This document shows positions 2,145 to 27,312 of a stretch of 64,000 nucleotides of DNA, piece after piece (position 1 is the first letter of the stretch; every line of letters starts with the position of its first letter). The position numbers and the translations under genes were made by a program. Below the pieces are notes generated by a model. It made no database searches and had not been told where the DNA came from. It saw nothing but the letters and a program-made list of their open reading frames with translations. Source of the stretch: Methanobacteriota archaeon. GTDB taxonomy: Archaea; Thermoplasmatota; Poseidoniia; Poseidoniales; Thalassarchaeaceae. The DNA is taken from NCBI GenBank assembly GCA_011523055.1, contig WTHQ01000019.1:25282-89281 (forward strand). The letters run 5' to 3'.

Positions 2145-2188
2145 TTGGAAGGGATCAATTTTTTGTCAAGTAAGACCTCTCGATAGCC

Positions 2189-2518: not shown

Positions 2519-2520
2519 GC

Positions 2521-3093: not shown

Positions 3094-6000
3094 TCAACCA
3101 ATCGCCGTCCGTATCCCAGTTAATCGGGCTCGTTCCCTCTGCTATTGAGTCCCCGTCAAAGTCTAGGAGCCACCAGCCGTATGGATACTCGCCTAAACCG
3201 GTATTGGGCAAGTGAAATTTGTCCCCAGCAAACCTTCCGAATGAATCGGTCCAGTTCCCGCTTAGTAGGACATTGTCATTGCTTGTGTCTATCTCCGTGT
3301 AGTCTTGATCGTTGTCATCAATCACAAGCGCATAGAGGGTGTCACTTTGGCTAATTCTGTTCATTCGGAGGTAATTCGTAGAGAGTGATACGCTGGATCC
3401 ACACAGCCCGAGGACCACCTCACGAAATTGCCATCCCTCCTGAACCTCATTCCCCCTGCAGTCGGTCAAGGGGGAAGCTCGGACTAGAGAGGGAGAAGAC
3501 AGGGATGCGTTCACAATTCCAAAATATTCTTGGAAATTGGTGTAGGGGACGTATTGGCAGCCTCCGAGGTTACACTCGAAATCACCATCTCTATCTGCAT
3601 CCCCTCCCACATCGGATGGGTCTGTTGGATCTAGAGTGAACCATGTCCAATTCAGTATCGGCCTGGAGATAGAGCCCCCATTGATGTTCACTGGCTTCCA
3701 ACTATTCGTGGATATTTGTTGCCAAACGACTTCGATTTGCATTAGTGATGACCAATTGTCATTGACCTCGTTCCAACCGAGGTGATACTCATAGAAATCA
3801 GGTAGCATGTCCCCATCCGTGTCGTTATCTAGTGGGTTTGTACCATACTTTAGCACCTCTCTGCCGTCAGAGAGGTTGAAATTTTGATTGTAGTTTGTAA
3901 CAGAACCGTCAATCGAAAACTCAGGCTGCATTAGAATTGAGTCTTGGTCCGTGTCATTTGATAGGGGTAATGTTCCGTTGTTGTATTCCATAAGGTTCGT
4001 GAACAACAAAGGCGTGGAGCCTGGGCTTATTTGCCCAGATGAGTTGAATGGTAGGAAGGTTCTGCTCTCCCAACTGCCTTGGACAGCGACATCATCCAAA
4101 CTGGTCCTGTCATACCAACCATCAGCGTCTGGGTCGTAGGAGCCGTCAAGGGGGTTCAATGGGTTGAGTGACCACCTCATCTGAGATTCTGGCAGTGGCA
4201 ACCACGTACCAAAGACAGAATAACAATACTCCCAACCATCCGGCAGCCCATCCATGTCGGAATCATCATCAGTGGGATCACTTATTCCAAGCAGGGTTTG
4301 ATTGAAGCTATCTGGGTCAAACTGGTTAATCAGTCCCATCCTCTCCAGGGACTGATCTGATTTGGTCGAAAAGGTTCTGTATAGGCTAGTTATCGCCTCC
4401 TCTTCTGAAAGCCCGTTCTCAAATTTCATCGCATTTATTGCATCCTTTGCGTAGGATACTGTCCCCATGCCTTGAGGAATAGTATCGATAGCGAGTAGCT
4501 TGCCATAGACCCTAGATTCATATTCAGCCAAATTGGTAAAGGACTCTGATGGAGATATCGTACCATCTCCATTGCAATCCCATGAGTCTTGGTCTGAGTC
4601 TCGATTCACATCCGTTGATGTTAATGGGTTGATTGACCATTGATTGGCCTCAAGGTCCCACTCAGTAAACCAATATTCGTATCCGTCACTCATACCGTCT
4701 CGGTCTGTGTCGGATTCACTTGGATCGGAAATTCCCAACAATGCACCCAACAAAGGCCTCACAAATCCTTCTGACTGCCAGTCGTTGAATTGAGAAATTG
4801 CGATGTGGGCCCTCCCCTGCTTGGTGAACAAAACCCTGTAAACCCTGTTCATTGATTCTAGTGCATCTAGTGACGTCGCCTCCTCGTAGAACCTGGGTGC
4901 ATCAGGAGGGGCAAGTGCGCCGTTCTCCGGGTTCGAATTCGTCAGGTTCAGTTCGACCAAGTCAGTCAGGCCATCGCGATCTGAATCAAACTGTCCATCA
5001 GACGGAACCAGTGGATTAAGAGTCCATGTTCCCTCTTCGTTATTCCATTTCGTGAAAATCATTTCTACCCCATCCAGCAGTCCGTCACCGTCTGTGTCTG
5101 GGTTGTTAGGATCGGCTGTGAGTGCACTATTGGGGTCCTTGGACCTCGCGGATTCTCCGAAAGACGCAGTTGAATCTGCGGTCAACCAAGGGGTTGGAAG
5201 CCAGTCCCCGCCGCTGTTTAGAAGGTAGAATTGAGGTGTGGTGATAAGTGAGTCGATCTCGCTCAGATTACCCTCTATAGAGTTGTACTCTTCCCAATTG
5301 GTCAGTCCGTCTCCATCTGGGTCTCCAACATCGTCATCCCCATTGACAGGATTCAGTGTCCACTTCTCCTCGAAGACGGACCATCTGGCGTGATATGCCT
5401 CCCAACCATCTGGCATCCCATCTGAGTCCGTGTCAGGGGAAACGGGGTTAGAGGCACCCACGTCTAGCTGTGTAATGTCAGTCAAGAGGCTGATAACCTC
5501 GGTGCTGGCTAGTTCTCCAAAGGACCCCTGTGGCTCGCTTATTTCGTCTGAGGAGTTGAACAGCCATGTCGTCAGATTCTCAGGGAGGCTCTCCGAGAAT
5601 GACCATGCCCCACCAACTAGAATTTCTGATCTCAGATGATATTCAAACCAATTGACAAATTCCTCCTCTTGGGATAGAATTCCGTCTCCGTTGACATCAT
5701 AGCCATCGCCATCTGGGTTTTCCATGGCATCAGACCCATTCAATGGGTTGATGCCTTGATTGTCGAGGTTCCAGGAACACGCATAGCGAGCCTCCCAACC
5801 ATCTGGCAGTGAGTCCCCGTCTGAATCAATGACATTAGGGTCTGTTGCAACCCAACTTAACGCGCTTGCTGACGACTCCCCATGAGTTATGAGTCCATTC
5901 TGTCTCACAGTCTCAAGCAAGACGGACCAGCGATACTCACAAGCGTTGGTGAGCCCATCACCGTCAGCGTCTTCATCTGCGTCGGTGGGATCGAGGGGGT

Positions 6001-12285: not shown

Positions 12286-15200
12286 TTAGGCTTGGTCCTC
12301 TGGGACCCATTCCCCTGCTTCGACGTCCCACAACCAACCAGGGTTCTCAGCATCCTTGATGAATCTCTGATCCTGTGAAGCTGTATGGTCATCAATCAAG
12401 TCGCCACCATCGAACTCAACGAATCTCGCTCCAAGCGCGCCGAGGGCCGCGAGCACCAGCAACAGTGCACCTATCAATCCCCATGGGAGGCTCCCATCAT
12501 CGTCGGATCCATCTGATATCTGTGCCCCTTCTATCGGGTCTCCAATGCCCATGGTGAATTGTGGGGTGACTGTCCCGACGATCCTGTTTGCCGGTATGAT
12601 GAGGTTCCAAGTGCTATCCTCCTTGACCACTGTTGAATTTGCAGGGTTGGTGTCGATGTAAGCCGTGACTGACCTACCAGGTATGCCAGTGCCCTGGAAT
12701 AGTATGCCCGTGTCGCCCGGCCCGAGAGTACTGGTTTCCGGCTCGTTGACTGAAAAGATAGTTGGGATTACAATGAAGTCAACGGGATCAGATTGGACCT
12801 TTGAACCAAACACGTCTTGTGCGATGAAGACAACGTTCTCCATGTTCCATTCCGACATGTCCGTTGTGTAGAAGGCCATCACGTCCGGATCATATGTAGC
12901 GATGCCACTTGAGTCGATCCTGATTCCAATGGCATGTTGATCATCGATGACTGCCATTATTATGTCCTGATCAGGGTCGGGATCTGAGAAGTGATTGGTC
13001 AGGTCGATGGTTATCGAAGTGCATCGGTCGAGCAGATCAAGGTTTTCGGCATCGCAATAGAGGGTGAATTCCTGCTGCCAGCCCTCGCTGTCGAAAATAG
13101 GACGGTTGTTTCCTCTGTTCGGGGGGTTGTCAGCAATGAACTCTATTTGGTCCCACTGCGAGTGACCAATTCCATCGAAGCTCCGTGCATGTATCGTGTA
13201 AGGTCGATCATGCTGTAGATTCCGGGAGTCCCATGATGTCGACCAATAATCTCCTTGGATTTCGGATCCTGTCAAGGTGATCGTGTCCACAACGATTCCG
13301 TCTATTGGGTCCCTGATTTCTATATCTATCCTGTTTACCTCTCCGTCAGGGTCCTGAGCGACTCCTGAAATCAGACTATTTTCTGATGCTGTTACGTATG
13401 AGCCATCAACTGGCTCCGATAGTTGCAATAGAGGTTTCCTGTTCTCATTATCGATTGTTAAAGTCAAAACCTGTGGATTGCACTCGTCAACGATGCCCAG
13501 ACAGAAGTCTGAGTCAGATGCCCAGATGGTAAAGGTGTAGTCATCTGAGGTTCTTGGCAGTGCTGCGTAACTCCATTCATACGTCCATGCGTTTCCAGTC
13601 CAAACAGCATCTGCGGGTGTGTCACTGTAGTACCCATCCCCCTCGATTATGAAATAGATGTCTTGAATATCGGAACCACAACTCAGAGGGCACCCATAGT
13701 CATCAGTTGCGATCCCTGAGAAGGTTATTTTTTTGTCTTCAATTCTGTGGGTTGTTGAGTCAGCTGGTTCTGAGACTGTTATCGATGGTGGTTGAGTGTT
13801 GAGTTTTACCGTCTTGGATACAATCTCGCTGTAATCGAGGCCGTCGAAGGACCGTATCTCGAACACATAGTCATCCTCCGGATACTCCGACATGTCCAAT
13901 GAGTATTCCCATGTCCTGAACGGATGATTTGTTCCAGTGACCTCTCCTGGCCCCATTCCAGACGTGTCAATGGCGGTGCCGGCATTCTCCCATGCCCCAG
14001 TAAATGGATCCTTCACCTCGACCCTGTGCACGTAACCCTTCTGTGCCCACCTAGACTCTTCCGCGGACGGGTAGACTCCGATCCACTCTCCGTCCCATGC
14101 TGTGCCTGTGATCGTGACTATTCTCTTGAAGGACGTGTCACTTGATTCATCCAGACTTATTGAGGGAGCGTCATTTTCCAGCGTCACCGTTCCCTCGTAG
14201 GTGGACTCTGGGAGAAGGAAGTCATACTGATAGTAACCTGACCCGAATTTGTACCCTGTTACGAAGTACTTTGACATCTCACGGCTACCAGTAGAGTAGT
14301 CACAGGAGTCATCCTGCGTGTCATAGAGGAGGTCGCCATCGTTGTCTATCCCATCCGAGCAAGAGTCCTCATACTCGTCATCTGCGAAGCCGTCTGGGTT
14401 GTCCCCTCCTTGCAGACCCCTGAAGTCGAGATGTGAGTTTGATGGTAGCGCGATCCATGGCGTCCTTCCGTCCTCGAGCGTCTCAAGGGAGTAGAGGTCA
14501 TTGCCCACTCCATCCTCGACTAGTATGTTCGCCCCAGGCACGGCCGTGCCATCTACTATGGCTTGGAACCTTACCATCTCCGCGCGCTTCACCTGTACAG
14601 AGTAGAATGTCGGCTGGGTCGCGATTTGAATCTTGGAGAGGTCCAAGTTCGCGACGTTGGAGAAAGTGAACACAGTGGAGTTGTTATCCATATTCAACGC
14701 CAATGGGAAGTCAAGGGGAGTGTAGTCGGGGCAGATAGCGCAGCTCGTTGTTTGATGAGGCACTATATTTGTGTCCCAGTCCCCATCCGGATTACCATCG
14801 TTGTCGTTGTCTACGACTCCCGGCCATGCTTCTTGATCGTCCCATGAGAGCTTGACCGGCACTTCCCCAGCAGGGGCGTCTGGAATTGTTTCCGATTGGA
14901 CCGTGACCGATGATTTCGTCACATTGTAGGTGCTAGTGACCCCGTTCCATAGATTCTCGGTGAAATATGCAAGTGTGCCATATTGTTGAGCTCCAGCGGC
15001 ACCCGTGTCAAAGTTCTGGAGGACAGCACCCTGAGAATTTAGGTTCCAGGTGTTCCTCTGGACATTGAGCAACGCCCCCGTTGCCCTGATTCCGTCGGCG
15101 GACCCGCTTGCGGTGAAGACGTTATCGACAAGTGTCGCACCTGCCCTGTGAACCATCACGACCGGACACGTAAACTCCCCGTCCCAGTGCGTATTGGACT

Positions 15201-16533
15201 GGCATGTGCCGGTCCCGAGGCTTGAGACCTGGTTGTTTGCGAAGTACAGCCTTCTGACATCGGGGTTATCGCCGACCCAATAGTCTCCGGCAATCACTGG
15301 CTCCCTTGCAGTGTCGCTGATCGTGTTGTTCTGTGCGTCTACGTCGAATGAGCCTATGAGCCAGAGCCCATTCCAACCACCAATCGGCCCGATGTCATTT
15401 CCGTGTATAGTCGCACGACTGGACTGGATGGCGATTCCCGAGCCACTCGCTGCCCCGCTGAGGTCATTTTCATGGATCTCGGCTAGAGATCCCGCATAGG
15501 CGGTTATCGGAGTGCCGTCTGCGGTTGTGATGACATTATTGGAAACGTTGGTCGGGTACTCATTCGAGCCGATGGTAATCATTCCGTTTATGTCCACGCC
15601 ATTGCAATTTACGTTGATTGTGGAATCCGTGACCTTACCGGCTGAGGACCTGTAGCTGAGCCCGAAATCTCCACTGATGACGTTTATGTTTCTGAAGTCT
15701 GCGAATGATTCTTCGACCCAAACCGCTGATCGGCCGTTATCCTGATTTCGACACCCTCTCTCAGTGGATATGAAATCGGAGTTCTCGAAGGTGATGGGGA
15801 TGCTTCCTGTGCCTCCCCCATAAATCTGGACAGCGTTCCCTGTGACTCCACTCTGCTCATCATTTCCAACTGTGTAGGTGCCACCAACGAATCTTGGTTG
15901 GGCGAGCTCCGTTGCTAGTACGCTTGAGGTGTTGGTGTCCGTGAACTGGAGCTCCACCAATTCAGGGGATGCCCCCTGGAGCACTAGGGCCCCATAACGG
16001 AATTGGTTCACCGTGGGAACTGGAAATGGGACGCCCCATGCCGACTCGATATCGAGGAACTGAAGTACAGTCTCAGACAGATCTATTGTACTGCGGATGA
16101 TTATGCCCTCGCCACATGAAGGGTCCTCGATACCAAGGGTGGATGTTCCATAGGACATACCATCGCAGTCCCCCTTGGCGGACGCGTTGGATGGATCTAG
16201 CCAGGTCATCGATATGCGACTGGAGGCAGAGGCGTCCTGGGAAGCCCCGCAAGATGCCGCGCCGACGCAGAGATTCCCACGGGCCTCCAATGAGGTTCCA
16301 TTGGAGAATGTGACTTCAGTGGATGGCTCGATTATCAATTTTGCACCAGGTGAGATGATTATGTCACCGCTGACGGTATGCGACCCAGACCATGTCTCTA
16401 TTGAGTTGATGTAGCCTGAGCTGGTTGTATTCTGGGCGGACACTGAGGAAGCGGGGCCTACCAATGCAGCCAATGTTGAAAGTAGTAGAATGGTCACCAG
16501 CGCTCTGCTCTTCAATCCGGCCAACTCGCCCAT
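12286..16533 (-). CDS. giant cell-surface protein (~1415 aa): right-handed parallel beta-helix region, acidic DNDGD-type calcium-binding motifs, multiple Ig-like domains, C-terminal TM anchor
   Basis: Start chosen at the internal Met MGELAGLKSRALVTILLLSTLAALVGPASSVSAQ (signal peptide); the annotated ORF extends to 16752. PbH1-like repeats (NNVITTADG...IHGNDIG...NNTISDT...). DNDNDGNPDGDWD and IDNDGDLLYD motifs. C-terminal LPWGLIGALLLVLAALGALGA helix. Confidence 0.85.
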   Translation of the reverse strand: MGELAGLKSRALVTILLLSTLAALVGPASSVSAQNTTSSGYINSIETWSGSHTVSGDIIISPGAKLIIEPSTEVTFSNGTSLEARGNLCVGAASCGASQDASASSRISMTWLDPSNASAKGDCDGMSYGTSTLGIEDPSCGEGIIIRSTIDLSETVLQFLDIESAWGVPFPVPTVNQFRYGALVLQGASPELVELQFTDTNTSSVLATELAQPRFVGGTYTVGNDEQSGVTGNAVQIYGGGTGSIPITFENSDFISTERGCRNQDNGRSAVWVEESFADFRNINVISGDFGLSYRSSAGKVTDSTINVNCNGVDINGMITIGSNEYPTNVSNNVITTADGTPITAYAGSLAEIHENDLSGAASGSGIAIQSSRATIHGNDIGPIGGWNGLWLIGSFDVDAQNNTISDTAREPVIAGDYWVGDNPDVRRLYFANNQVSSLGTGTCQSNTHWDGEFTCPVVMVHRAGATLVDNVFTASGSADGIRATGALLNVQRNTWNLNSQGAVLQNFDTGAAGAQQYGTLAYFTENLWNGVTSTYNVTKSSVTVQSETIPDAPAGEVPVKLSWDDQEAWPGVVDNDNDGNPDGDWDTNIVPHQTTSCAICPDYTPLDFPLALNMDNNSTVFTFSNVANLDLSKIQIATQPTFYSVQVKRAEMVRFQAIVDGTAVPGANILVEDGVGNDLYSLETLEDGRTPWIALPSNSHLDFRGLQGGDNPDGFADDEYEDSCSDGIDNDGDLLYDTQDDSCDYSTGSREMSKYFVTGYKFGSGYYQYDFLLPESTYEGTVTLENDAPSISLDESSDTSFKRIVTITGTAWDGEWIGVYPSAEESRWAQKGYVHRVEVKDPFTGAWENAGTAIDTSGMGPGEVTGTNHPFRTWEYSLDMSEYPEDDYVFEIRSFDGLDYSEIVSKTVKLNTQPPSITVSEPADSTTHRIEDKKITFSGIATDDYGCPLSCGSDIQDIYFIIEGDGYYSDTPADAVWTGNAWTYEWSYAALPRTSDDYTFTIWASDSDFCLGIVDECNPQVLTLTIDNENRKPLLQLSEPVDGSYVTASENSLISGVAQDPDGEVNRIDIEIRDPIDGIVVDTITLTGSEIQGDYWSTSWDSRNLQHDRPYTIHARSFDGIGHSQWDQIEFIADNPPNRGNNRPIFDSEGWQQEFTLYCDAENLDLLDRCTSITIDLTNHFSDPDPDQDIIMAVIDDQHAIGIRIDSSGIATYDPDVMAFYTTDMSEWNMENVVFIAQDVFGSKVQSDPVDFIVIPTIFSVNEPETSTLGPGDTGILFQGTGIPGRSVTAYIDTNPANSTVVKEDSTWNLIIPANRIVGTVTPQFTMGIGDPIEGAQISDGSDDDGSLPWGLIGALLLVLAALGALGARFVEFDGGDLIDDHTASQDQRFIKDAENPGWLWDVEAGEWVPEDQA

Positions 16534-16582: not shown

Positions 16583-17815
16583 TCACCAGTTGTCTGCGGA
16601 GGCCTCGATGGCATCTCGCCATGCCACAGCATCAAGCATGCCATATCCTGATCTCGGATCGTGGCCGATCTGGTCTTTCGTTTGTTTTGCGCTCTCGGCA
16701 AGTGCCCTCTTGAAATGATGAATGCGGTCCTCATCGTAATCCTCGAGGTCAAGAAGGTCTTTTTCAGAGAGATCCTGGAGGATCAATGACAAGGTAGCGG
16801 TGACAAACATGGTAGCGTCACTTGTACCGGTTGAATATGCATAGGGTGGAGATTTCTCACTGGAAACGGTGGATAGAATGTAGGACCCAGGGGCTAGGAT
16901 CTCAGGCTTTTGGTTCGGCCAGACTCTAACTGACTCAGTGTATGGGTCGAAGTCCGAACCGATTGAGGTGTTTGACCAAGGCGTCAGAAACCTGTCATAC
17001 GCACCGACGCTGATGACTCCCTCTACGTTTGCGGGCGTTGATACGTCTAGATTGTTCGGTCCGGCGTTGCCCGCCGCGGCAACGACGAAGATCCCACTAT
17101 CAAGTGCATCGTTGACTGCGGTGGAAACGGATCTCGATGCTTGTTGGGAAGATGCCTCGAATGGGCCGCCCAGTGACAAGCTGATAATGTTCACCTGTTG
17201 AGAAACACGGCACCACTGGATGGCATCTGCAACTCTGATGCTATTGCCGGTGGTGCCCTCTGGACCTAGGCCGACCGCTATGCTTAGTGTCACACCCTTT
17301 GCCATGCCGCTCAATGGGCCAGATCCGTTCGAGACGAGCAACCCGGCCATGGCGGTGCCATGGTGAGATTGGCTAACGTCCCTAACCGAATCATGCTGAA
17401 ATGCGTAAAAGTCCCTGAATCCAACTAGATTCATTTTTTGGAGATCGGGGTGCGAGGCATCTATCCCCGTGTCGACTATGCATACTTTGATCCCGCTTCC
17501 GTCCAATCCCTCATTGGCTAGGTCCCTCACTCCTGAGGACTCATATGCCCAGTCCGAGGCAGGGAGGTACGGGGTCAATAATGGTTGGATCATCGGCCAG
17601 AGCAGCATCATAACGATCATTGTCGCGGCCCCCCCGACCGCACCATATGGCCATACGAAGGTGGAGATTGAGGTCATCGGCCTCCGAAGGTCCCTGGCCT
17701 CGAGGTCAGAGAGGCCATAGGCCTCCCCAGGATACCCTTCCGCCTCTTTGTCGACCGCTGTCAGGATGGCACGGTCCCCCGGTTCTGGCATCAACTCGAC
17801 GCCATCGCCAGGCAC
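16583..17815 (-). CDS. subtilisin-like serine protease (peptidase S8) with N-terminal TM segment
   Basis: Catalytic Asp VCIVDTGID, His HGTAMAGL, Ser GTSDATMFVTA. N-terminal hydrophobic helix GAVGGAATMIVMMLLWPMIQPLL. Alternative start at MTSIS possible. Confidence 0.85.
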   Translation of the reverse strand: MPGDGVELMPEPGDRAILTAVDKEAEGYPGEAYGLSDLEARDLRRPMTSISTFVWPYGAVGGAATMIVMMLLWPMIQPLLTPYLPASDWAYESSGVRDLANEGLDGSGIKVCIVDTGIDASHPDLQKMNLVGFRDFYAFQHDSVRDVSQSHHGTAMAGLLVSNGSGPLSGMAKGVTLSIAVGLGPEGTTGNSIRVADAIQWCRVSQQVNIISLSLGGPFEASSQQASRSVSTAVNDALDSGIFVVAAAGNAGPNNLDVSTPANVEGVISVGAYDRFLTPWSNTSIGSDFDPYTESVRVWPNQKPEILAPGSYILSTVSSEKSPPYAYSTGTSDATMFVTATLSLILQDLSEKDLLDLEDYDEDRIHHFKRALAESAKQTKDQIGHDPRSGYGMLDAVAWRDAIEASADNW

Positions 17816-17835: not shown

Positions 17836-20800
17836 TCAGAAGGGCGCGTTGGGTTTCCTTCCGGGCCTTCTGGTCAATAGGATCAAGAGGCCCCCGAGAA
17901 TGACGATTAGCACGACCATCAAAACTTGGGTGGCATTTCCAGCCTCATCGACACTTGGAGACTGGAGGTTGTATTTCTTTGTGTAAGGGTCCTCAGAGGA
18001 CTCCTTCCCGTCAACCGATTCTATTGAGAAAACGATCCAAGCATCCCCTTGAGTGAGTGAGCTGAAGTTAAGGTCCAAGAATGCCGTGTCTTGGCCACCT
18101 GCAGGAATCGAGAGGACTGTACTAGCGTTGATGCCGGATAGCTCTGCTTGAGCGGAGGTCTTGTGGTCCGCCCTGACCACTACCTCTCCTGCTTCAACCA
18201 AACCATTGTTTTCTACTGTCAGCACCACAGTCTGAGTTGATCCATAGACAGGGTCCTTGCCCCCTCCCAACCATGAAACACTATCTCTATCGATCGATAT
18301 GACGGCAAACTGCGCGCTTACCTCAAGCACAACTGGTTGGTATTCAGTCTGATCGCCGCCGATGACGTACATGGTTAGCGAGAACGGCTCGTCTGTGGCA
18401 GCCTCTGGCGCACTCAGTACGACGGATACTGCTTGGCTTTCGAACGCCCCAACGGTGACCGACTGCACGCCGGTCCTCGTCCAACCTTCGGGCAAGGCAT
18501 CATCGTCAAATGAGATCGCGAACACCTCGTCCGAATTCCCATCGTTCTGGAACGTTAGCTGTAGGTTTTGCTGGGATCCCGGCCTGACGCCATACAACTC
18601 ATCGGGTTCCTCCGCTAGGCTCCAACCAGTAGTCTTTGGGACGTTGACCATTACCTCAACGTCCTCATTGACCCCATTGTCTGATGATATCTGAATGGCC
18701 ACTGCCCGTCCGTCGGGGAAGTGCCGTGCCACAGTGGAGTTCGGGGGCGTAATCTTGACACTGATGGTCTTCTGGTCGTCATCAATTGACATTAGTAGGG
18801 TCGTAGAATCGGTGTACTCCCCGGACCCGTTGTCAATTTGGATCGCCCATTCGGCTGAGTCGGTGCCTGGTACTGTGGCCCTTATGTTGAATTCATCTGA
18901 TGTCTCATGGCCCTCGTAGTCAATGACGACCTCGACGAATATTGGGTCGTAACCCCCCATACCATCGAGTTCTGCGACAAGTATTCCGGCTTCGTCGACG
19001 ATGGCGGATGTTGATGAGCCCACAGACGCCGATATGGCGCTATTTGAGATTCTATTGAACCTCAGGTCGATTGGTGCAGTCTCGAATGAGTCCGAAATGG
19101 TTGACGAGGGGATGCTGATGGACTGGCCTGCCTCGTATGCCATGGTCCTATCCTGCTGGTGGACCTCGAAATCCCCAGAGACGGTAACAGAACCCGATGG
19201 GAGTAGTACCCTGATTTCTCCGTTTGAGGGCACAGCCAGCCTCCATTCTACTGAGGGGCCTGACTCCATGAGAAGCGTTATCTCATCGGCTAGGATATCG
19301 GAGCCATCCAGGTCCATGTCGATTGAGGAGATGGAGTGGAGTCCGCCCTCGTAGTCGATCCATGAGCCATTCATCACGAGCCATCCCCCGGGCACGAGGT
19401 CAACGTCCGCTTGGCCCCCATCCACTAGATCTGCGAATATGGGGGCGAAGGCGACCAGGTTTCTGGATTCATCACGGATCTGTAGCACGTACCTGCCGGG
19501 CTCAAGATCAACGGACCATGTCCCGTCCCAATCCTGTCCCCCTCCCTTGTCAGCTGAGACTGATGGCATTGCGAATCCCTCTCTTGGGACCAATAGGATT
19601 TCAATATCGTCCGACCAGGCGGGATCCACTGATTCACCGAGGTATGTGATGCTGCCTCTGGCCGTGACCGTACCTGCTGTGAGTTCGACATCTAGGTCGA
19701 CTGGCGCGCTCTCGATGGAAGTGTTGGCTTCCATGGTCGCGAATCCGTCTTTTTCGACTGTTATAGAAAGGGTGACATTCGACCGCACCAACGTTGAGTA
19801 TGTTCCAGACTCATCAGTGGTGATTTCCACTGTGGACTGTCCGTCATCCACCAATATGGTAGCATTGGATACTCCCTCTGCGACATCTGCTTGGCCGTCC
19901 TTGTCGAAGTCCCAGAACACCTTCCCAGAGAGGGTGACCTCCCTCTGCGCTTGGAGTGTTACTTCCCTGAGCTGCCCTGCTTGAACCTGGTCAATGTGCG
20001 TCTCTTGAATGACTATCCTGACGCCACCGACCTCTTCGTCATGGCTTATGCTCCAGTTGCCTGGGACGACGTTTGCTGACGAGGAACCAGTTTCGTTCGT
20101 GATGGGCATCTTCACCGAACCCAGGCCATCCTGCGACTCGAGGAATAGTCTCTGGCCCGCAACAGGGCTGGAGGACTCAGTGTCGAGTATCGTTATGTTC
20201 AACGTGGCCATCTCTGTGAGTTCCAATGTCATTTCAGGGGACTCTGAGCCTGCGATTACCTCGACATGGGACCTGACTCCTAGCACAGTGTTGTCACCGG
20301 GCTCAAAGCCATCAATCTCAATTATTGTTTGCCCTGTTGGCAGCAGGGCGAGTATGTTGCCGTCTTCATTGGTCCTCAGCGTTGTCACTGTCACAGGATC
20401 CGTGTCAATGTTCCTGAATTTCACATCCAAATCAGGAACAGGGGCCAGGAGTTGGTCAAGGATGGTGACATTGACGACCCCCTCTGGATCAAACCCTATG
20501 TCTCTGGCAAGGGATGTTGGTTGGTAGGGAACCTGTAGATTGGTGTCACCAGTTAGGATCCTCGTGCCGAAGAGAGTCTCGTCCGGGTTAAGGATGGATG
20601 TCTCGATGACGTAGTTGCCCGGTTCCAGCTCTATGTTCGCGGATCCTGTCGTGGATGTTGTTAGGTTCCGCTCGATTCCATTTGGGTTGAGTGGGACGAT
20701 CCTGAAGTCCGCAACTACGCCACTGCCGTTCGTGAAATTGCCATCCCCTGAGGTGTCGATGAAAGCAAACAGGTCCAAGGTGCTGTTGACTGGTGTTATG

Positions 20801-23800
20801 GTTATCTCTATCGTTGTTCCTTGCTCCGTGGTGATCGGGTTGTGATCTAAATTGGAGTCCAACAAAGAGACGGTCCAATCTCCAACAGGGAGTGCTATCT
20901 CGAAGTTCCCAATTTCGTCGACTTCGGAGGTCCAGGTTACTGCAGAGGACTCGTTGGTCGCAATGACGGATAGCCTCTCCCACCCTAGGATCGAATCCTC
21001 GTAAAGGTAGGTTCCTCGGTTCACGGTAACTATTCCCTCATACACCACTCCTTTTCGAGTTACGAGGCTGATGGGTTGGTTCTCCTCAGAGGTGAAGACG
21101 ACTAGTCCATCCACCAGGTTGCCCAAGCCGACCGTCGATGTTACTGTGACGTTTTCGCCCACGGGCAATGTGAATTCGAAATTACCATCCTCATCTGCCA
21201 CGGTGGATATCTCGAAGCCATCCCATCTCGCTACGACTTCGGCGTACTGGACAAAGTCATCCGGCCCAGGTGGGGTGTCATCATCCGATGTGAGAACTGT
21301 GCCCAGGAGCTGGGAGCTTGTTCTGAATTGAACTGTTTTGTACATGTCCTGATCGAGGGCTATTCGCTCCCATACCTGGGTGTTGCCAAGGGTGTAGTTC
21401 AATAGGTATTCACCGGGTAGTAGCTCTGCTTTGTAGGTCTCAGAATCTTGGTCATAAGCCATGTCAAAGACCTCATTGTTTGAAGAGTGCTGTATCTGCA
21501 AGTCGAGACCTCTGACCAAATCTCCAGTTTCAGATTGCAACGAGATTTCAAGATCGGCTGTGACAGGTACTATCAGATCGAGGGAGATGGCTCCTGACTC
21601 GGCGTCCTCTGGCGATAGCTCCGCCACGACATCGAAGAATCCATCGGAGTCGGAGTCGTATGATATCGTGTGTGGTCTTGCCGGGATCGGTCTAATTTCG
21701 ATGGTCCCACCCTCGCTGATGTCTATGGTGCAGGGCGACGATATTTTCAGGGCACAATCACCAGGTTCGTTCTGGCTCTGTAGGTCTGTATCAGTGAGTA
21801 CCACGCTCCCTGTGGCGGGAGTGCCATCTTCTTGCAGAAGGGTGGCGGTTACAGAGAGGCCGTCCACCTGGATGAGTCGGGTTTCCGTGGCAGGGGTCCT
21901 CAGGATGGAGAACTTCTCGGAAACTTCGACCTCCTGGCCGGTGTCCATTACAACGCTTACGCTGTATTCACCAGGGATGGCGTCTGATAAGTGGAAGGTG
22001 CCCTCACGTACCATCTGACCACTGAACACTCCGTCCCCTTGGAAGACACCGTTACCGGAAATTTTTCCAGAGGCCCCGTCCTGAACTACGAATCTACCAG
22101 CTGCTGTAAATGAGGCGTTGTCATAATGGCGAATGAACTCAGACTGACCGTTGGAGACGAATCTTCCCGTTGCATTCACTGACCCGGAGACCAGTATGTC
22201 GCCACTTTGGGTCAGACAGGTCTCAGAGCCGACAGGCATGGTGTCGTTGTCGCCACAGGTAGTCGGTTCGGATCCCTCGGAAAGGGCTCCGTTCAGGATA
22301 CCGTTCCCGTTGAAGGTTCCAGTACCAGAAACTGACTGGTTATTCCTTATCGTTTGGCTCAGTGTTCCTGTGAAGCCCTCTGCCCGTGCTGGGCTCGAGG
22401 AGTCGAACTGCCCGATCCCATCGAACACTGCACTGCCCTCTCCTGCGAAGTAGAGGCCCTCGCCCTCGATCGACCCGGATGATGTCGATATTGAGTAACC
22501 GGGGTGGGAAGCAGAGGGGTCGGCTGGCGTGAGGACGACCGTGGCGTTCTTTATCGGGTCGCCTGCAAAGGAAGGGTCTCCTGCCCACTGGACCTGCCCT
22601 GTGGAGGTGACGGCGGGTACGCTAACATCAACTGCCAGGGTCGCCTCTCCGTTGCTGTGCCCCTCCTCTCCGTCAACCATGATAACCTGAGAGCCCAGGT
22701 ATGTGGTTCCTGCAACCCCGCCCAGTATTGCGGTGATTGGGTTGATGGTTCGGTCCTCGCCGTCGACTTGCTCTCGGGTGATATCGGAAAGCATGTCGAA
22801 GGCGCCCGACTCTATCTGGGCCCTTGCATCGGTTTCGTCTACTGATCCGTAGAAAGCGCTAACCCTTATCTTCCCAGATGGTATGGTCGAGGTGAATTGG
22901 CCTAGGTCATTGGCCGTCTCGGATCCGATGGGTATCCAGTAGGTCCTGGGGTCGGTGTCCATTCCTTCCTCTGAGCTGAATGCGTCCCTCTCAATCAGAA
23001 TTTTCGCATTTGGCACCGGCTCCCCTGTTTCTAGAGTCACCGTGCCGGTTAGCGTGGCACCGCTGTAATACTTGAGTATCTTGACATTGGAGTTCGCATT
23101 TCCGATCGCGTTGTAGTACTGGCTGGGGTCGACACGTGGGTCACTCCAGTTGTAAATGTCAGGTGTGCCGTCGGCATCCGAGTCCAAGTAGTCAGAACCA
23201 TCGTCGTGGTAGTTCGCCAACACGAAGTGGTTCATCATGGCCCCCGGCAGGGCGTAAGCGTTCCTGAGGGGGGTGTCGGGGGTTCCTGATCTTGACCATG
23301 TAGGTCCGGGTTGCCCAGTATTACCAGGGTCGAGACCCAAAGAGGTAGTTCCATAGCCTACGTAAATTTTCGAGAGGAATGTCTCGAAGAACTCTGGCTG
23401 TTGGATGTAGTCAATGTCCTCAAGTGCGATTATCTGACTCTGGTCTGTTATTGCTCCAGACTGTTGTCGGACGATGTCATCAAGGTACTCCTGCTCATAC
23501 TCACCCGCCGTACGGGGGATAATCGGGCCGTCGCCCCTTCGAGTGAGGTAGCTGCTCGAGATGTAGTCTTCTGGATCCAGTCCCGCTAGGGTAGTGGGGG
23601 CATAGAAAATACCCGTGGTTTGGCCTCCGTGGTAATTGTAACCATCGTAGAAAAGACCACCGAGTGGGTATAGTCTGTCATCAATGGCGAAATATCTCAC
23701 GTCGGTGCTTCTCTGGGTGGTCTCCCCTATTCTACCCTCAAAGGTCTGTACTTCATGCTCTACCTCACTTAGGTCCGAAACTAGTCCTACTATCTGGTCT

Positions 23801-26800
23801 AGGTTGAGTGTATGGGTGATGAATGCTCTGCCAACCGCCAGTTTCGCGTTGTTCCTGTGGATTCCGGTTGACAGGTCGTTGTAGTCCTCAATCAGGTCAG
23901 AAGTGTACCTGTAGTCGCCAATAATGTAGTGAGTTGGGCTGGGGGAGAAGTAACTGGATGAGGACCTAGTTGTGTTGAAGAGACGCATGGCTTCGTTTGG
24001 GTCGTCCATGCGCTCACCGACTATCTCTCCGTCCTCGAGCACGTACCAACCAGACTTGGAGGGCAGACCGGTAGTTGACAAGAATGACCCACTTAGTAGT
24101 TGGACACCACCATCCTCGTGTATGAGTGCGAGCGAACGTGCCTCCACGTCTTCTACCGACATGCTGTGTATTCTCTCTAGTTCCCTGATTTGATTATCCT
24201 GGAAATAATGGCCTAGTGCCTCCCGATTGTCTTCATCTGTGACTCCACCCATTCTGAGGGCGTTCATTACCAGCAGGGCGAGGACGTCCTCCTGGCCTGA
24301 GCTGAGTAGGATGTTCCCCGAGATTGGTATTCCAGATTGGAAATTGTCTGCGACCGTGGGGTGCTGTCCGTGGGAAAGCGCTTGGAACCCATAGTCCCAC
24401 CAAGATAGGAAGGCAGGGCGTTCTGTGAAGGCGGTTTCTGAGTCCTGTTCGGATAGCCACTCATAGGCCATGTTCCAGCCCCCTCCATTGAAGCCTGGCC
24501 CAAAGGTACCTAGGTACCAACAGCCACTCGTGCAACGCTCGTCCGGCGAGTATTGGTTGGAGTTGAGGACGGAGAAACCTAGAACCTCGTACCGCAGCAC
24601 ATCCGGCATTATCCCCTGGATGGTCTCATCAACGTCACCAGCAGAAGAGTCACCACGGGGTATCCCTGAATCTATGCCGTAGGTGGCGTGTTGGGAGAAA
24701 ACGATGAGCAGGACCATCAGCGCAGCTGGTACGCCTGGCCTTGATCGGCTAGCGGAGAAAGTGCTGTTGAACCGTGCCCTTGGAGATCCGATGCCTGTTT
24801 TCTTCCAGTGTTTGACAAATTCTGCTGGGTTGGCGTAAGCCCACATGGCAGTGAGACCTATGCCGCCTACGACTGCCATCGGGGGCCCTGCGTTGAATAT
24901 GAACCTACCAGCGGTCCAGGACATATAGGACGCGACAACTATCCATGTTCCTAGAGTGAATGATGCTGTGTCCTCGTTCCTTCCACCCCTCCACATCAGC
25001 ATAACCCCATAGCCAATCGCGGCGATGGTCACGATTGGGCCGAATGAGGCGAACAGGATGCCCCTGTCTGGAGCCTGTGCCTCTCCAATGGTTGAGAAGA
25101 CCTTGTTCTTCGAGAAGTAGAAGCCACCAGTGGTTAGGATGTCCCAACCGGCGTACCACCCAAGGGCCTGCAAGGCGTAGAGGACTCCCAACACGGTTAG
25201 CGTGAGCGTGGCAGTGGTTGTGAAGACCATGAGCCATGGTTTGTCCCTAGACGCGGAAATAACGTAACCAAGGCCGAGTGTGAACCCTAGCATGTAGATC
25301 ATGGGGGCCATGCCGCTTGGGTTTGTCAGCAGGTTCATCCCTGGCCAGATGTAGAATGGGAGCGGGATTATGATCGCGGCAGCAAGCATCTGTAGCATCG
25401 CGGATGTGATGGGAAGCGTGTCCCTCCCCCTAAACAGATTAAGGAATACTATGCCCGAGTACCCCAGGAAGAGGATTCCTGGCGCGTAGACGAATCCCTT
25501 CCAAGCAAGCCCAGCGGTTGCGAATGAGATTCCTGAGAGGGTCGCGTAGACCATGGTGGTCCTCTGCGAGTGCCACATGAACCTGATTCCCGCGAGGATG
25601 TACAAAGGGTTCCAAGAGGTTCTAGAGAATAGACGATCCTGCCTCATGCCCATCATGGACCTGACCCACCAGTAGAATCCCAGTGTGAGGAAGAACATGG
25701 CGAATGAATCGTGGTCTGCCAACCCGAAGGTCGAGTGAGTGATGTGGCCCGGCATGAATGCTATCAACCAAGCAGATGCGATGCCTGCCAGAGGGGAGTG
25801 GAACCTTCTGGCCATCGCCGCCACGGGGAGCACTATTAGCGCGCCCCAGATTGCAGGCTGGGCTTCCACTGACCACCAAACTGCTTCCGAGAGAGACATG
25901 TCCGCCACCCACGACAGAAATATTCCTCCGAGGGCGAGTGACCATGAGAAGAGGGGCGGCCGGGGGTTGAGCCCCCCCACAGGGTAATTGCGGTCTGCGT
26001 CAAACACAAGGTGGGCCCTCTCATAGGCGACGTAATCGATGATTCGCTTCATGTACCATGGATCAGATCCCCCAGACATGTCCCACTCCCCGATAATCGA
26101 GGCGTTCATGGCAGGAATTACGTTCCACACGACTCGGACGATGAAACCTACTACGAGGGCCATGCCGACCAGGATGGCGTAGTTGTGATTTTGCCACCAC
26201 CTTCTGAGATGTGAAGGTTCCCTGAGGGGGGCCATAGCACCTAGATGTCCCCTTGAGGCCAGAACAATGATGCCGACATTCGACCAGAAGGTAATGAGCA
26301 ACCAAAGGATCATCGGATAAGAGCCGTCGTCTGTCAGAGCAGCAGGGAAACCGGATACTCCGACGTCACTCAATCTCCCAAGAGTGTAAATTACCCAATT
26401 CAGAGATGCCACGGATGCTAGGACATTCCATCTTTCTGCTTTGAATAGGCAGACGACCATGACCACAGCAGCGGAGAAAAGGCCCCAGAAGGGCCCGAGA
26501 AAGGCGCCATTGTCGTAGACCGATGGATCATCTATGGTAGCCAGCCAGACCATGGGAACCAGGAGTGAGGTCATAATCGCACCGGCAGCGAGATGGATGG
26601 ATTTGTTCTTGATGTCGAACGGCAGCTCCGAGAGCATGCCCGACCTGCTATTTCTGTCAAGGGTCTTGGACAGCATCAACGAGACGTAGAGGGCGCCCAT
26701 TACCATAACGGAGGCCATTGAAGAGAACCTAGCGCCCAGATAGGCGCGGGCGGCATCGGTCTGTGAGCCGTCCGGAATCTCTGAATTCAGCGCGTATATC

Positions 26801-27210
26801 ACAGCGAAGTAAATTCCGATGATGCTTCCGACGAGGAAATTCGCCTCAATCGGCCTGCCCTTCGAAGTCAGGACATGTGTCCCCATGGAAGTGAGGAGGA
26901 ATGTTATGCATAGCGCTGCAGGGGCGACAAGGGAGGCTCCAAGAGAGGTAGCTATGAGAATGGTAGGGGCTATCCAATCGTCGAGTTTCGTCACAGAGGG
27001 GTGCTCCGAGCTAATCCTCCCGAAAGCCGCGCCAGTGGCAGCCACGGCTGGAAGAGCGAGGAGGGCTATTTCGTCCGTCCATCCATTCAGTCCCGAGACC
27101 TGTGCAGTGATCAAGAACACAAAAAAGGCGGCTGCCAACAGGATTGGGCCGCCAAGTATGCCTTTCATCGAGGCTGCATCGGTGTTGCCGTTTTTGTCTA
27201 TCATTTTCAT
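17836..27210 (-). CDS. aglB: giant (3124 aa) membrane protein: extra N-terminal polytopic domain + AglB/STT3 oligosaccharyltransferase core + ~2000-aa Ig-like/beta-sandwich ectodomain + C-terminal TM anchor
   Basis: STT3 signature WWDYGFQ (codons at 24388-24402). EL1-type motif GSDPWYMKRIIDYVAYERAHLVFDADRNYP. TIxE-like TIGEAQAPD. More than 20 predicted TM helices in the first ~850 aa. Long ectodomain of repeated ~100-aa beta-sandwich units. Ends ...QVLMVVLIVILGGLLILLTRRPGRKPNAPF. Confidence 0.8.
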   Translation of the reverse strand: MKMIDKNGNTDAASMKGILGGPILLAAAFFVFLITAQVSGLNGWTDEIALLALPAVAATGAAFGRISSEHPSVTKLDDWIAPTILIATSLGASLVAPAALCITFLLTSMGTHVLTSKGRPIEANFLVGSIIGIYFAVIYALNSEIPDGSQTDAARAYLGARFSSMASVMVMGALYVSLMLSKTLDRNSRSGMLSELPFDIKNKSIHLAAGAIMTSLLVPMVWLATIDDPSVYDNGAFLGPFWGLFSAAVVMVVCLFKAERWNVLASVASLNWVIYTLGRLSDVGVSGFPAALTDDGSYPMILWLLITFWSNVGIIVLASRGHLGAMAPLREPSHLRRWWQNHNYAILVGMALVVGFIVRVVWNVIPAMNASIIGEWDMSGGSDPWYMKRIIDYVAYERAHLVFDADRNYPVGGLNPRPPLFSWSLALGGIFLSWVADMSLSEAVWWSVEAQPAIWGALIVLPVAAMARRFHSPLAGIASAWLIAFMPGHITHSTFGLADHDSFAMFFLTLGFYWWVRSMMGMRQDRLFSRTSWNPLYILAGIRFMWHSQRTTMVYATLSGISFATAGLAWKGFVYAPGILFLGYSGIVFLNLFRGRDTLPITSAMLQMLAAAIIIPLPFYIWPGMNLLTNPSGMAPMIYMLGFTLGLGYVISASRDKPWLMVFTTTATLTLTVLGVLYALQALGWYAGWDILTTGGFYFSKNKVFSTIGEAQAPDRGILFASFGPIVTIAAIGYGVMLMWRGGRNEDTASFTLGTWIVVASYMSWTAGRFIFNAGPPMAVVGGIGLTAMWAYANPAEFVKHWKKTGIGSPRARFNSTFSASRSRPGVPAALMVLLIVFSQHATYGIDSGIPRGDSSAGDVDETIQGIMPDVLRYEVLGFSVLNSNQYSPDERCTSGCWYLGTFGPGFNGGGWNMAYEWLSEQDSETAFTERPAFLSWWDYGFQALSHGQHPTVADNFQSGIPISGNILLSSGQEDVLALLVMNALRMGGVTDEDNREALGHYFQDNQIRELERIHSMSVEDVEARSLALIHEDGGVQLLSGSFLSTTGLPSKSGWYVLEDGEIVGERMDDPNEAMRLFNTTRSSSSYFSPSPTHYIIGDYRYTSDLIEDYNDLSTGIHRNNAKLAVGRAFITHTLNLDQIVGLVSDLSEVEHEVQTFEGRIGETTQRSTDVRYFAIDDRLYPLGGLFYDGYNYHGGQTTGIFYAPTTLAGLDPEDYISSSYLTRRGDGPIIPRTAGEYEQEYLDDIVRQQSGAITDQSQIIALEDIDYIQQPEFFETFLSKIYVGYGTTSLGLDPGNTGQPGPTWSRSGTPDTPLRNAYALPGAMMNHFVLANYHDDGSDYLDSDADGTPDIYNWSDPRVDPSQYYNAIGNANSNVKILKYYSGATLTGTVTLETGEPVPNAKILIERDAFSSEEGMDTDPRTYWIPIGSETANDLGQFTSTIPSGKIRVSAFYGSVDETDARAQIESGAFDMLSDITREQVDGEDRTINPITAILGGVAGTTYLGSQVIMVDGEEGHSNGEATLAVDVSVPAVTSTGQVQWAGDPSFAGDPIKNATVVLTPADPSASHPGYSISTSSGSIEGEGLYFAGEGSAVFDGIGQFDSSSPARAEGFTGTLSQTIRNNQSVSGTGTFNGNGILNGALSEGSEPTTCGDNDTMPVGSETCLTQSGDILVSGSVNATGRFVSNGQSEFIRHYDNASFTAAGRFVVQDGASGKISGNGVFQGDGVFSGQMVREGTFHLSDAIPGEYSVSVVMDTGQEVEVSEKFSILRTPATETRLIQVDGLSVTATLLQEDGTPATGSVVLTDTDLQSQNEPGDCALKISSPCTIDISEGGTIEIRPIPARPHTISYDSDSDGFFDVVAELSPEDAESGAISLDLIVPVTADLEISLQSETGDLVRGLDLQIQHSSNNEVFDMAYDQDSETYKAELLPGEYLLNYTLGNTQVWERIALDQDMYKTVQFRTSSQLLGTVLTSDDDTPPGPDDFVQYAEVVARWDGFEISTVADEDGNFEFTLPVGENVTVTSTVGLGNLVDGLVVFTSEENQPISLVTRKGVVYEGIVTVNRGTYLYEDSILGWERLSVIATNESSAVTWTSEVDEIGNFEIALPVGDWTVSLLDSNLDHNPITTEQGTTIEITITPVNSTLDLFAFIDTSGDGNFTNGSGVVADFRIVPLNPNGIERNLTTSTTGSANIELEPGNYVIETSILNPDETLFGTRILTGDTNLQVPYQPTSLARDIGFDPEGVVNVTILDQLLAPVPDLDVKFRNIDTDPVTVTTLRTNEDGNILALLPTGQTIIEIDGFEPGDNTVLGVRSHVEVIAGSESPEMTLELTEMATLNITILDTESSSPVAGQRLFLESQDGLGSVKMPITNETGSSSANVVPGNWSISHDEEVGGVRIVIQETHIDQVQAGQLREVTLQAQREVTLSGKVFWDFDKDGQADVAEGVSNATILVDDGQSTVEITTDESGTYSTLVRSNVTLSITVEKDGFATMEANTSIESAPVDLDVELTAGTVTARGSITYLGESVDPAWSDDIEILLVPREGFAMPSVSADKGGGQDWDGTWSVDLEPGRYVLQIRDESRNLVAFAPIFADLVDGGQADVDLVPGGWLVMNGSWIDYEGGLHSISSIDMDLDGSDILADEITLLMESGPSVEWRLAVPSNGEIRVLLPSGSVTVSGDFEVHQQDRTMAYEAGQSISIPSSTISDSFETAPIDLRFNRISNSAISASVGSSTSAIVDEAGILVAELDGMGGYDPIFVEVVIDYEGHETSDEFNIRATVPGTDSAEWAIQIDNGSGEYTDSTTLLMSIDDDQKTISVKITPPNSTVARHFPDGRAVAIQISSDNGVNEDVEVMVNVPKTTGWSLAEEPDELYGVRPGSQQNLQLTFQNDGNSDEVFAISFDDDALPEGWTRTGVQSVTVGAFESQAVSVVLSAPEAATDEPFSLTMYVIGGDQTEYQPVVLEVSAQFAVISIDRDSVSWLGGGKDPVYGSTQTVVLTVENNGLVEAGEVVVRADHKTSAQAELSGINASTVLSIPAGGQDTAFLDLNFSSLTQGDAWIVFSIESVDGKESSEDPYTKKYNLQSPSVDEAGNATQVLMVVLIVILGGLLILLTRRPGRKPNAPF

Positions 27211-27312
27211 TCACCCAGTACAGCCGAGGCTGTCCAGCATCGCGGCCACCTTGCCTCTCCATTTAAGCGGGACGGTCACATTGTCAACAGGGAAGTGGCG
27301 ATGACATCCCGA

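Follow-up and report, generated by a model that had tools for sequence, protein, structure and literature searches.

We analyzed a 64,000-nucleotide (nt) stretch of contig WTHQ01000019.1 (the window), from an archaeon of the Poseidoniales (Marine Group II, most likely Thalassarchaeaceae/MGIIb), and found that a gene on its reverse strand encodes a giant form of the oligosaccharyltransferase (OST) AglB/STT3. The product (giant AglB) is one polypeptide with approximately 23 transmembrane (TM) helices, in which an STT3 core is joined to an orphan N-terminal membrane domain, a long beta-sandwich stalk, and a second membrane anchor at the C-terminal end. By a modest balance of probability, we read it as an active AglB with a built-in, glycosylated, and doubly anchored extracellular scaffold, where the role of the stalk is the part that we infer. 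The initial annotation, made from the letters of the window alone, had described one uninterrupted open reading frame (ORF) of 3124 amino acids (aa), and this ORF was recovered at 17836..27210 (−). The gene and its parts are listed below in window coordinates, where EL denotes an external loop.

17836..27210 (−): giant aglB/STT3 gene; single ORF of 3124 codons plus stop, ATG start
26206..27210 (−): N-terminal extension, aa 1–335; approximately nine TM helices, orphan domain
24631..26205 (−): STT3/AglB transmembrane catalytic core, aa 336–860 (TM1–TM13, EL1, EL5)
26053..26064 (−): EL1 motif DPWY, aa 383–386, with the first catalytic Asp, D383; aligned, invariant
25708..25716 (−): second acidic motif D499-H500-D501 (DxD/DxH/DxE type); aligned, invariant
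25081..25092 (−): TIxE motif T707-I-G-E710, EL5; assigned by pattern position, invariant
22711..24630 (−): extracytoplasmic catalytic and peripheral domain, aa 861–1500; from identity, Pfam tile, and model
24388..24402 (−): WWDYG motif, aa 937–941; aligned, invariant
17941..22710 (−): stalk, aa 1501–3090; at least 10 recognizable beta-sandwich modules, rich in N-x-S/T; from Pfam tiles, internal hidden Markov models (HMMs), AlphaFold2 (AF2), and Foldseek
17875..17931 (−): C-terminal TM anchor, aa 3094–3112; from hydropathy
17839..17874 (−): basic cytoplasmic tail TRRPGRKPNAPF; ends in ...APF-COOH, conserved

The catalytic core

The Pfam family STT3 (PF02516), which together with CAZy GT66 covers the STT3, AglB, and PglB oligosaccharyltransferases, matched aa 353–698 with 54.8 bits against a cut-off of 24.5. 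The hydropathy scan placed STT3 TM1 at aa 346–364. Human STT3A/B, yeast Stt3, and Archaeoglobus fulgidus AglB (AfAglB) were matched by phmmer against PDB sequences and by the family profile; the identity between AfAglB and the giant AglB is only 14–18%. The modelled core has the GT-C/STT3 fold with 13 TM helices and is superimposable on solved OST catalytic subunits. The AglB/STT3 core proposed in the initial annotation was thus borne out by the Pfam match, the motif alignments described below, and the fold. NCBIfam TIGR04154 (archaeo_STT3) aligned with aa 350–973 at 129.8 bits, far below its subfamily cut-off of 450 bits. We therefore rejected membership in this archaeosortase A system-associated OST subfamily and regard the protein as a relative of it.

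The catalytic motifs were assigned by alignment with the reference enzymes. D383, in GGSDPWYMKR, aligns with GGNDPWYYYR of AfAglB and with D103 in DPWF of human STT3B; the first catalytic Asp of EL1 is D47 in AfAglB and D56 in PglB. The D499-H-D501 motif aligns with D-H-H of AfAglB and with D-N-E of STT3. The WWDYG motif aligns with WWDYG of STT3A/B and AfAglB, at exactly the coordinates given in the initial annotation (nt 24388–24402), and the TIxE-like motif noted there was located as TIGE at aa 707–710. The annotation had also described an EL1-type DPW...R...DxD motif. Its DPWY part is catalytic, but the second acidic motif is D499-H-D501, rather than the D404-x-D406 pair that was seemingly meant.

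Conservation of these residues was examined in 31 homologous sequences, the most distant of which are approximately 40% identical over the full length and 46% identical over the first 1200 aligned aa. G380–R389, D499-H-D501, T707-I-G-E710, and W937–G941 were all invariant, as was D404-x-D406 of EL1. The TIxE motif would lie between TM9 and TM10, in the EL5 loop, which was modelled with a predicted local distance difference test (pLDDT) score below 50. EL5 is flexible, so low model confidence is expected there. Judged by its sequence, the core is a genuine STT3/AglB enzyme, which keeps the known metal- and sequon-binding residues D383, D499/D501, E710, and WWDYG. With these residues in place, its most likely activity is that of other AglBs, the transfer of a dolichol-phosphate-linked glycan to Asn-x-Ser/Thr at the outer membrane face.

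The ectodomain and the stalk

The segment following the TM core, aa 861–1500, was modelled as alpha/beta units with pLDDT values of approximately 80–88. Its block identity to the giant AglB among homologues is 0.42–0.68, as compared with 0.28–0.42 in the stalk, and it includes the first CarboxypepD_reg module at aa ~1386–1462 (Pfam, tile 1). The initial annotation had assigned approximately 2000 aa to a repeat ectodomain. A long beta-sandwich ectodomain is indeed present, but the repeats proper comprise approximately 1600 aa (aa ~1500–3090), and aa 861–1500 belong to a conserved, enlarged catalytic/peripheral domain.

The Pfam delimitation that had been proposed along with the annotation yielded STT3, CarboxypepD_reg, and NPCBM_assoc/CARDB-like domains. 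CarboxypepD_reg (PF13620, clan Transthyretin) reached 77.6 bits against a cut-off of 32.3. Tiling of the stalk located CarboxypepD_reg modules at aa ~1986, 2080, 2246, and 2445; this transthyretin-like part is followed by NPCBM_assoc/CARDB-like modules at aa ~2876 and 2986. More divergent copies of the modules were detected with internal HMMs. The AF2 model of aa 1500–2059 was all-beta with pLDDT values of 80–91, and Foldseek matched it to SdrD B domains and to pilin and adhesin shafts of Gram-positive bacteria.

Sequons are concentrated in the stalk, which carries 24 N-x-S/T sites as compared with the 12.2 expected; the first 1500 residues carry only 5. Across 27 homologues, we counted 932 stalk sequons against 429 expected (2.17-fold), while the catalytic ectodomain contained 0.8 times the expected number. 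Eighteen sequon columns were kept in at least 60% of these sequences, one of them in 27/27; the conserved sites include those at aa ~1511, 1679, and 2161. Among the surface proteins of the window, the stalk of the giant AglB is the most sequon-enriched. This enrichment suggests that the stalk itself is a substrate of glycosylation, an idea that the initial annotation did not contain.

Two invariant Cys pairs lie in the stalk (−), at aa 1652/1665 (TTCGDNDTMPVGSETC, window ~22216–22257) and at aa 1819/1827 (GDCALKISSPC, window ~21730–21756). Each pair probably forms a disulfide or a metal site, in agreement with a position outside the cell. We infer this position of the stalk from the way in which STT3 is oriented in the membrane, from the positive-inside tail, and from the Cys pairs and the enrichment in sequons.

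The C-terminal anchor and tail

The C-terminal helix gave the highest hydropathy peak of the whole protein (2.83 with a 19-residue window and 3.41 with a 17-residue window), and a TM helix at this position was found in all complete homologues. As the initial annotation had described, the helix (aa 3094–3112) is followed by a basic tail, TRRPGRKPNAPF, and the self-consistent topology that it had outlined was upheld. The tail has the consensus LTRRxGRRPxAPF. Its last residue is Phe in 122 of 123 proteins of the type with the N-terminal extension, as compared with 10 of 181 proteins without it. The terminal ...RRPxAPF-COOH may be a docking or sorting signal. The tripeptide PGF was absent from the last 40 residues of this protein and of all 123 homologues of the Marine Group II (MGII) type, so these proteins do not have a PGF-CTERM end.

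The N-terminal extension

Ahead of STT3 TM1, the hydropathy scan revealed approximately nine hydrophobic helices at aa 15–320, in line with the extra polytopic membrane domain of about 330 aa that had been annotated; the domain spans aa 1–335. The loop at aa 320–345 is basic, which fits a cytoplasmic location ahead of TM1. The extension matched no Pfam family and gave no specific structural match. The idea that it arose by duplication of the STT3 TM domain within the protein was rejected (hhalign probability of 0.3%). An HMM of the extension matched MGII-type proteins only, and the domain was found only in Poseidoniales. This HMM had no match in the 181 proteins without the extension, nor in four non-MGII loci with stalked STT3 genes (L080–L083); the latter result led us to reject the idea that the domain is encoded separately near these genes.

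Conservation across the Poseidoniales

Among the matches listed by the homology search were one protein with 99% identity and over 120 relatives of full length (3100–3340 aa), the latter with 38–78% identity and approximately 100% coverage. Their sources are named as marine group II/III euryarchaeote, Candidatus Poseidoniales, and Thermoplasmatota. Each GTDB species was represented by one genome in a scan for signature peptides of the family, which gave matches at no fewer than 593 species-representative loci. We examined 79 of these, each from an independent assembly and all from Poseidoniales. Every complete locus contained one uninterrupted ORF of 3124–3324 aa with the TM helix and the ...RRPxAPF end. 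Intact loci included single-cell genomes (AG-xxx) and long-read metagenome-assembled genomes (MAGs) with contigs of 0.7–1.6 Mb.

An assembly artefact, such as a hidden frameshift or a chimeric join, is extremely improbable in view of these data. The only loci that could be cited for it are L024 (3250–8679), which has a shorter ORF of 1810 aa, probably through an assembly or frameshift error, and L014, which is broken by runs of masked N; we counted neither as support. On the other side, the collinear and uninterrupted ORF recurs in every complete locus of the 79 assemblies, which stem from many projects and differ by identities of 38–99%. The comparison with independent and long-read assemblies, which had been suggested with the annotation, therefore showed no split ORF in complete loci and excluded misassembly.

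The alignment of 27 sequences was collinear, with a gap fraction of at most 0.09 in every 100-aa block. In this alignment, the identity to the giant AglB was 0.28–0.35 in the N-terminal extension, mostly 0.53–0.71 at aa 300–1500 (with one block at 0.42), 0.28–0.42 in the stalk, and 0.54 in the tail. The survey of related archaea showed that equally long AglBs occur throughout the order Poseidoniales. The architecture had been called unusual, and this holds in relation to characterized OSTs of 700–880 aa, but within a large clade (at least 593 loci) it is the rule.

Stalked AglBs in other Thermoplasmatota

An exhaustive HMMER search with the core (E ≤ 0.001) yielded 643 clusters at 50% identity, approximately 12 of which were of the MGII type. 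Many of the remaining clusters consist of proteins of 2000–2800 aa with a core that is 28–37% identical and with WWDYG at aa ~570–800. Their STT3 core begins at residue ~10–100, so they are without the N-terminal extension, and nearly all of them end in a TM helix with a basic tail. Hundreds of such stalked and anchored AglBs occur outside the Poseidoniales, in other Thermoplasmatota, and the stalk-and-anchor design was found in 181 non-MGII relatives. The named members come from Thermoplasmata, Methanomassiliicoccales, and Thermoplasmatota MAGs, and the databases label them "carboxypeptidase regulatory-like domain-containing", "STT3 domain-containing", "glycosyltransferase family 39", or "hypothetical protein". 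Their Pfam pattern comprises CarboxypepD_reg, SdrD_B, NOMO-like, and NPCBM_assoc. Forms of approximately 1100–1300 aa without the anchor are also present in Thermoplasmatota.

These proteins share with the giant AglB the CarboxypepD_reg...NPCBM_assoc stalk, the C-terminal TM helix, and the basic tail. In one of them (P0139, NCBI MFA5772382.1), the core is collinear with that of the giant AglB through the first CarboxypepD_reg module, up to aa 1485. They differ in having neither the N-terminal extension nor the ...PF-COOH end, and stalk length is both smaller and less uniform among them than in Poseidoniales. Because the stalk and anchor are common to both types and the additions are confined to the MGII type, sequence comparison indicates that the stalk and anchor are old within Thermoplasmatota, and that the extension and the ...PF end are additions of the Poseidoniales.

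Some of the non-MGII proteins are PGF-CTERM-like. PGF precedes the C-terminal helix in 21 of the 181 relatives without the extension, and an end consisting of PGF, helix, and Arg-rich tail was observed in the stalked AglBs P0138, P0158, P0168, P0172, P0174, and P0233. In such relatives, an OST would itself be a substrate of an archaeosortase.

Two observations concern the surroundings of non-MGII stalked STT3 genes. In the Methanomassiliicoccales MAG L082 (JBNARQ010000002.1), a 2172-aa stalked STT3 lies near a CARDB protein, purD, and a 2081-aa NosD/beta-helix protein. Two genes downstream of it, after the CARDB protein, 15432–15755 (+) encodes a thioredoxin of 107 aa, for which Pfam gave a weak match to OST3_OST6; OST3/6 are thioredoxin-like subunits of the eukaryotic OST. 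In the Thermoplasmata MAG L080, 1–4512 (+), the genes just ahead of the stalked STT3 encode an 8356-aa protein without a recorded Pfam match and then a 1077-aa Ig/PKD protein.

Comparison with known systems

AfAglB-L of Archaeoglobus fulgidus (PDB 3WAJ/3WAK/5GMY/7E9S) is a structurally characterized archaeal OST of approximately 870 residues (chain of 875). Beyond it, the giant AglB has an N-terminal set of TM helices (approximately 335 aa), a conserved ectodomain of larger size, a 1600-aa stalk, and a second anchor.

In eukaryotic OSTs, accessory subunits consist of lumenal beta-sandwiches with a single C-terminal TM helix beside STT3 (6EZN, 6S7O), and both of these structures were among the matches obtained for the giant AglB. 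Ribophorin I/Ost1, OST48/Wbp1, and ribophorin II/Swp1 resemble the stalk and anchor by functional analogy only. They are separate polypeptides, whereas the stalk is part of the enzyme chain and much longer. We rejected homology between the stalk and ribophorin/OST48, as no Ribophorin or DDOST Pfam match was found at E < 0.1.

NOMO is a type-I membrane protein of the endoplasmic reticulum (ER) with approximately 12 transthyretin-like/CarboxypepD_reg domains. Like the giant AglB, it is a string of beads of the same Pfam clan with a C-terminal TM anchor. NOMO_5th was faint in the giant AglB (E = 0.053); in relatives, it reached E = 7.2e-10, and NOMO1-like_2nd appeared there as a weak match. However, NOMO starts with a signal peptide and has no enzymatic domain, and these matches are at clan level and do not imply orthology.

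The S-layer glycoproteins of the Haloferax type (PGF-CTERM/archaeosortase A) are similar in their tandem Ig-like domains, dense sequons, and C-terminal helix with a basic tail. They are secreted through a signal peptide, whereas the stalk of the giant AglB is fused behind a 22-TM enzyme and has no PGF.

Gene neighborhood

Two genes downstream of the giant gene are on the same strand:

16583..17815 (−): S8 subtilisin-like protease with an N-terminal membrane anchor; Pfam Peptidase_S8, E = 1.3e-39
12286..16533 (−): beta-helix surface protein of approximately 1415 aa with a signal peptide and a C-terminal TM helix; weak Pfam Beta_helix match

The hydrophobic segment of the S8 protein is at aa ~55–80. 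In 54 of 55 Poseidoniales loci, its gene is the next one after the giant gene, on the same strand and with a gap of 20–45 nt; it is probably co-transcribed with aglB. A beta-helix homologue was the second downstream gene in all 53 Poseidoniales loci, and purD was directly upstream of the giant gene in 50/50. The stalked STT3 had no adjacent S8 protease in either of the two non-MGII loci that we inspected. The neighbors in the window also include CDP-archaeol synthase; together with purD, it marks the organism as an archaeon.

The spacer between purD and aglB is 102 nt long. It contains a TTAAAT element at window 27255–27268 (−), approximately 45–50 nt upstream of the aglB ATG. This may be an archaeal TATA box, in which case aglB would have its own promoter. 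Since the alignment of homologues begins at Met3, the true start may be at nt 27204, two codons downstream of the annotated ATG.

Interpretation of the architecture

In the reading that we favor, the stalk would be a built-in extracellular scaffold of approximately 15 beta-sandwich beads with a length fixed across the order. With twice as many sequons retained as expected, the scaffold is probably N-glycosylated by the catalytic domain of the chain itself (in cis) or by that of neighboring copies. The TM helix and positive-inside tail at its far end would place both ends in one membrane; instead of extending as a free fiber, the stalk would then span the active site as an arch or canopy. It may act as an intrinsic accessory module, functionally analogous to ribophorins/OST48 or to the NOMO rod. 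Such a module could keep the enzyme within the glycoprotein envelope and display or arrange substrates, for example, the co-encoded beta-helix surface protein. The most speculative step is that the N-terminal nine-helix domain and the ...PF-COOH tail may dock and thereby close the arch. Also in favor of the reading as an active AglB, the aglB (gene 305) of an MGIIb MAG, which may be of the giant form, is reported to be differentially transcribed in coastal metatranscriptomes (PMC9723583).

Several points weigh against this reading. The relative positions of the stalk domains are unreliable in the model (predicted template modelling score of 0.47), with which both an arch and a compact packing are compatible. 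The catalytic loops and the WWDYG region were modelled with low confidence. The DK/MI motif of the Ser/Thr pocket was not located, and comparison of aa 1140–1240 with PDB sequences gave chance matches only. By position, the invariant block R1172-Y-F..D1177..L1180.PLGG..Y1193-H.Q1197.TG may be a candidate, which would carry Ile at the site of the DK Lys. The association of the N-terminal extension with the terminal Phe is confounded by phylogeny, as both mark one clade. Relatives with a PGF-CTERM end would lose the C-terminal helix to archaeosortase.

The chain might instead be a polyprotein, cut after translation into an AglB of normal size (with or without the N-terminal extension) and a glycosylated type-I coat protein, for example, by the downstream S8 protease. 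The fusion would then serve stoichiometric co-delivery and cis glycosylation before release. The membrane-anchored protease in its nearly constant place (54/55 loci), the sharp drop in conservation at aa ~1500, a stalk as rich in sequons as surface glycoproteins are, and the PGF-CTERM-type end of some relatives, which is typical of archaeal S-layer glycoproteins, would all suit such a product. However, no cleavage site could be identified, and at two non-MGII stalked STT3 loci the S8 gene is absent, yet these proteins have this fusion, too. Moreover, several hundred relatives included no two-gene version; the short matches were fragments at contig ends. We therefore consider processing of this kind unlikely. 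The stalk could also, in line with an idea of the initial annotation, be a spacer or molecular ruler without a role toward substrates, setting the distance from the membrane to an outer layer or the height of the active site; NOMO has reportedly been proposed to space ER sheets. The tightly kept length and domain order (3124–3338 aa, collinear), the rod of beta-sandwich domains that recalls pilin and adhesin shafts, and the weak matches to NOMO domains in relatives are what one would expect of a ruler. Against this, the active site is adjacent to the membrane within the TM core in all STT3 structures (3WAJ, 6S7O), and the stalk therefore cannot move it. In addition, both ends of the stalk are anchored in the membrane, and none of the openly readable papers searched addresses an S-layer in Poseidoniales. 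A pure spacer has a small probability in our estimate. The annotation had also suggested that the product could be a structural surface protein that glycosylates its neighbors, an idea that our data neither support nor contradict.

The possibility that the protein is an adhesin or particle-binding fiber, with a degenerate enzyme serving only as a polytopic anchor, draws on the resemblance of the stalk fold to bacterial adhesins, on the several large surface proteins encoded nearby, and on the general view that MGII archaea are particle-associated. It is contradicted by the catalytic residues, all of which are invariant, and by the core, which at 55–71% identity is the most conserved part of the protein; this is unexpected for a mere anchor and makes a vestigial enzyme very unlikely. 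The repeat number is constant, unlike in typical adhesins, and we saw no lineage that combines a retained stalk with decayed catalytic motifs.

The scaffold reading can be extended to a single-chain OST "holoenzyme" that is also an envelope organizer. In this extension, the tail would dock on the N-terminal domain, the closed and glycosylated arch would capture and glycosylate nascent surface proteins (for example, the beta-helix protein), the S8 protease would mature them, and the assembly would set the geometry of the MGII envelope. We regard the extension as a long shot. The closed arch would be approximately 25–30 nm high, as estimated from ~15–16 beads of ~4 nm each, folded back. If it were true, lumenal beta-sandwich modules beside STT3 would have arisen in archaea independently of, or before, the subunits of the eukaryotic OST.

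Novelty and implications

In openly readable papers on AglB, OST, and S-layers of MGII, Poseidoniales, and Thermoplasmata, we found no description of giant AglBs. The sequences are public and partly labelled as STT3 already; therefore, the protein is a variant of a known enzyme family and not a new kind of system. MGII archaea, none of which is in culture, rank among the most abundant archaea of the surface ocean, and next to nothing is known of their cell envelope. Their N-glycosylation enzyme is 3–4 times larger than any characterized OST. We expect that specialists would be surprised by its size, double anchoring, conservation across the order, and the abundance of its hosts, although the function of the added parts is putative. 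The giant AglB offers a molecular handle on the MGII surface for metaproteomics, glycoproteomics, electron cryotomography, and as an antibody target. It also indicates that a single chain can combine the STT3 catalytic subunit with an extracellular accessory apparatus of its own, which bears on the evolution of the multi-subunit eukaryotic OST. The same principle occurs in other Thermoplasmatota MAGs, including Methanomassiliicoccales, an order with cultured members, and experiments would be feasible if a cultured strain has a stalked AglB.

Other genes of the window

Three further genes of the window were observed. At 9698–12223 (−), an 841-aa STAND-type NTPase (AAA_16/NB-ARC) is encoded, with an N-terminal HTH and C-terminal TPR repeats; it had no homologue in the downstream flanks of the related loci, which extend only into a part of the beta-helix gene. 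The gene at 3002–8746 (−) specifies a 1914-aa acidic surface protein with a signal peptide and bacterial TSP3 (calcium-binding) repeats, likewise with no homologue in these flanks, which end before this position. At 33655–36378 (+), we found a 907-aa protein that has a TM helix at each terminus and a Pfam match to the CD36 family (E = 3.8e-10, aa 72–166). This family, CD36/SCARB, is generally considered eukaryotic; the hairpin topology of the 907-aa protein is also compatible with it.

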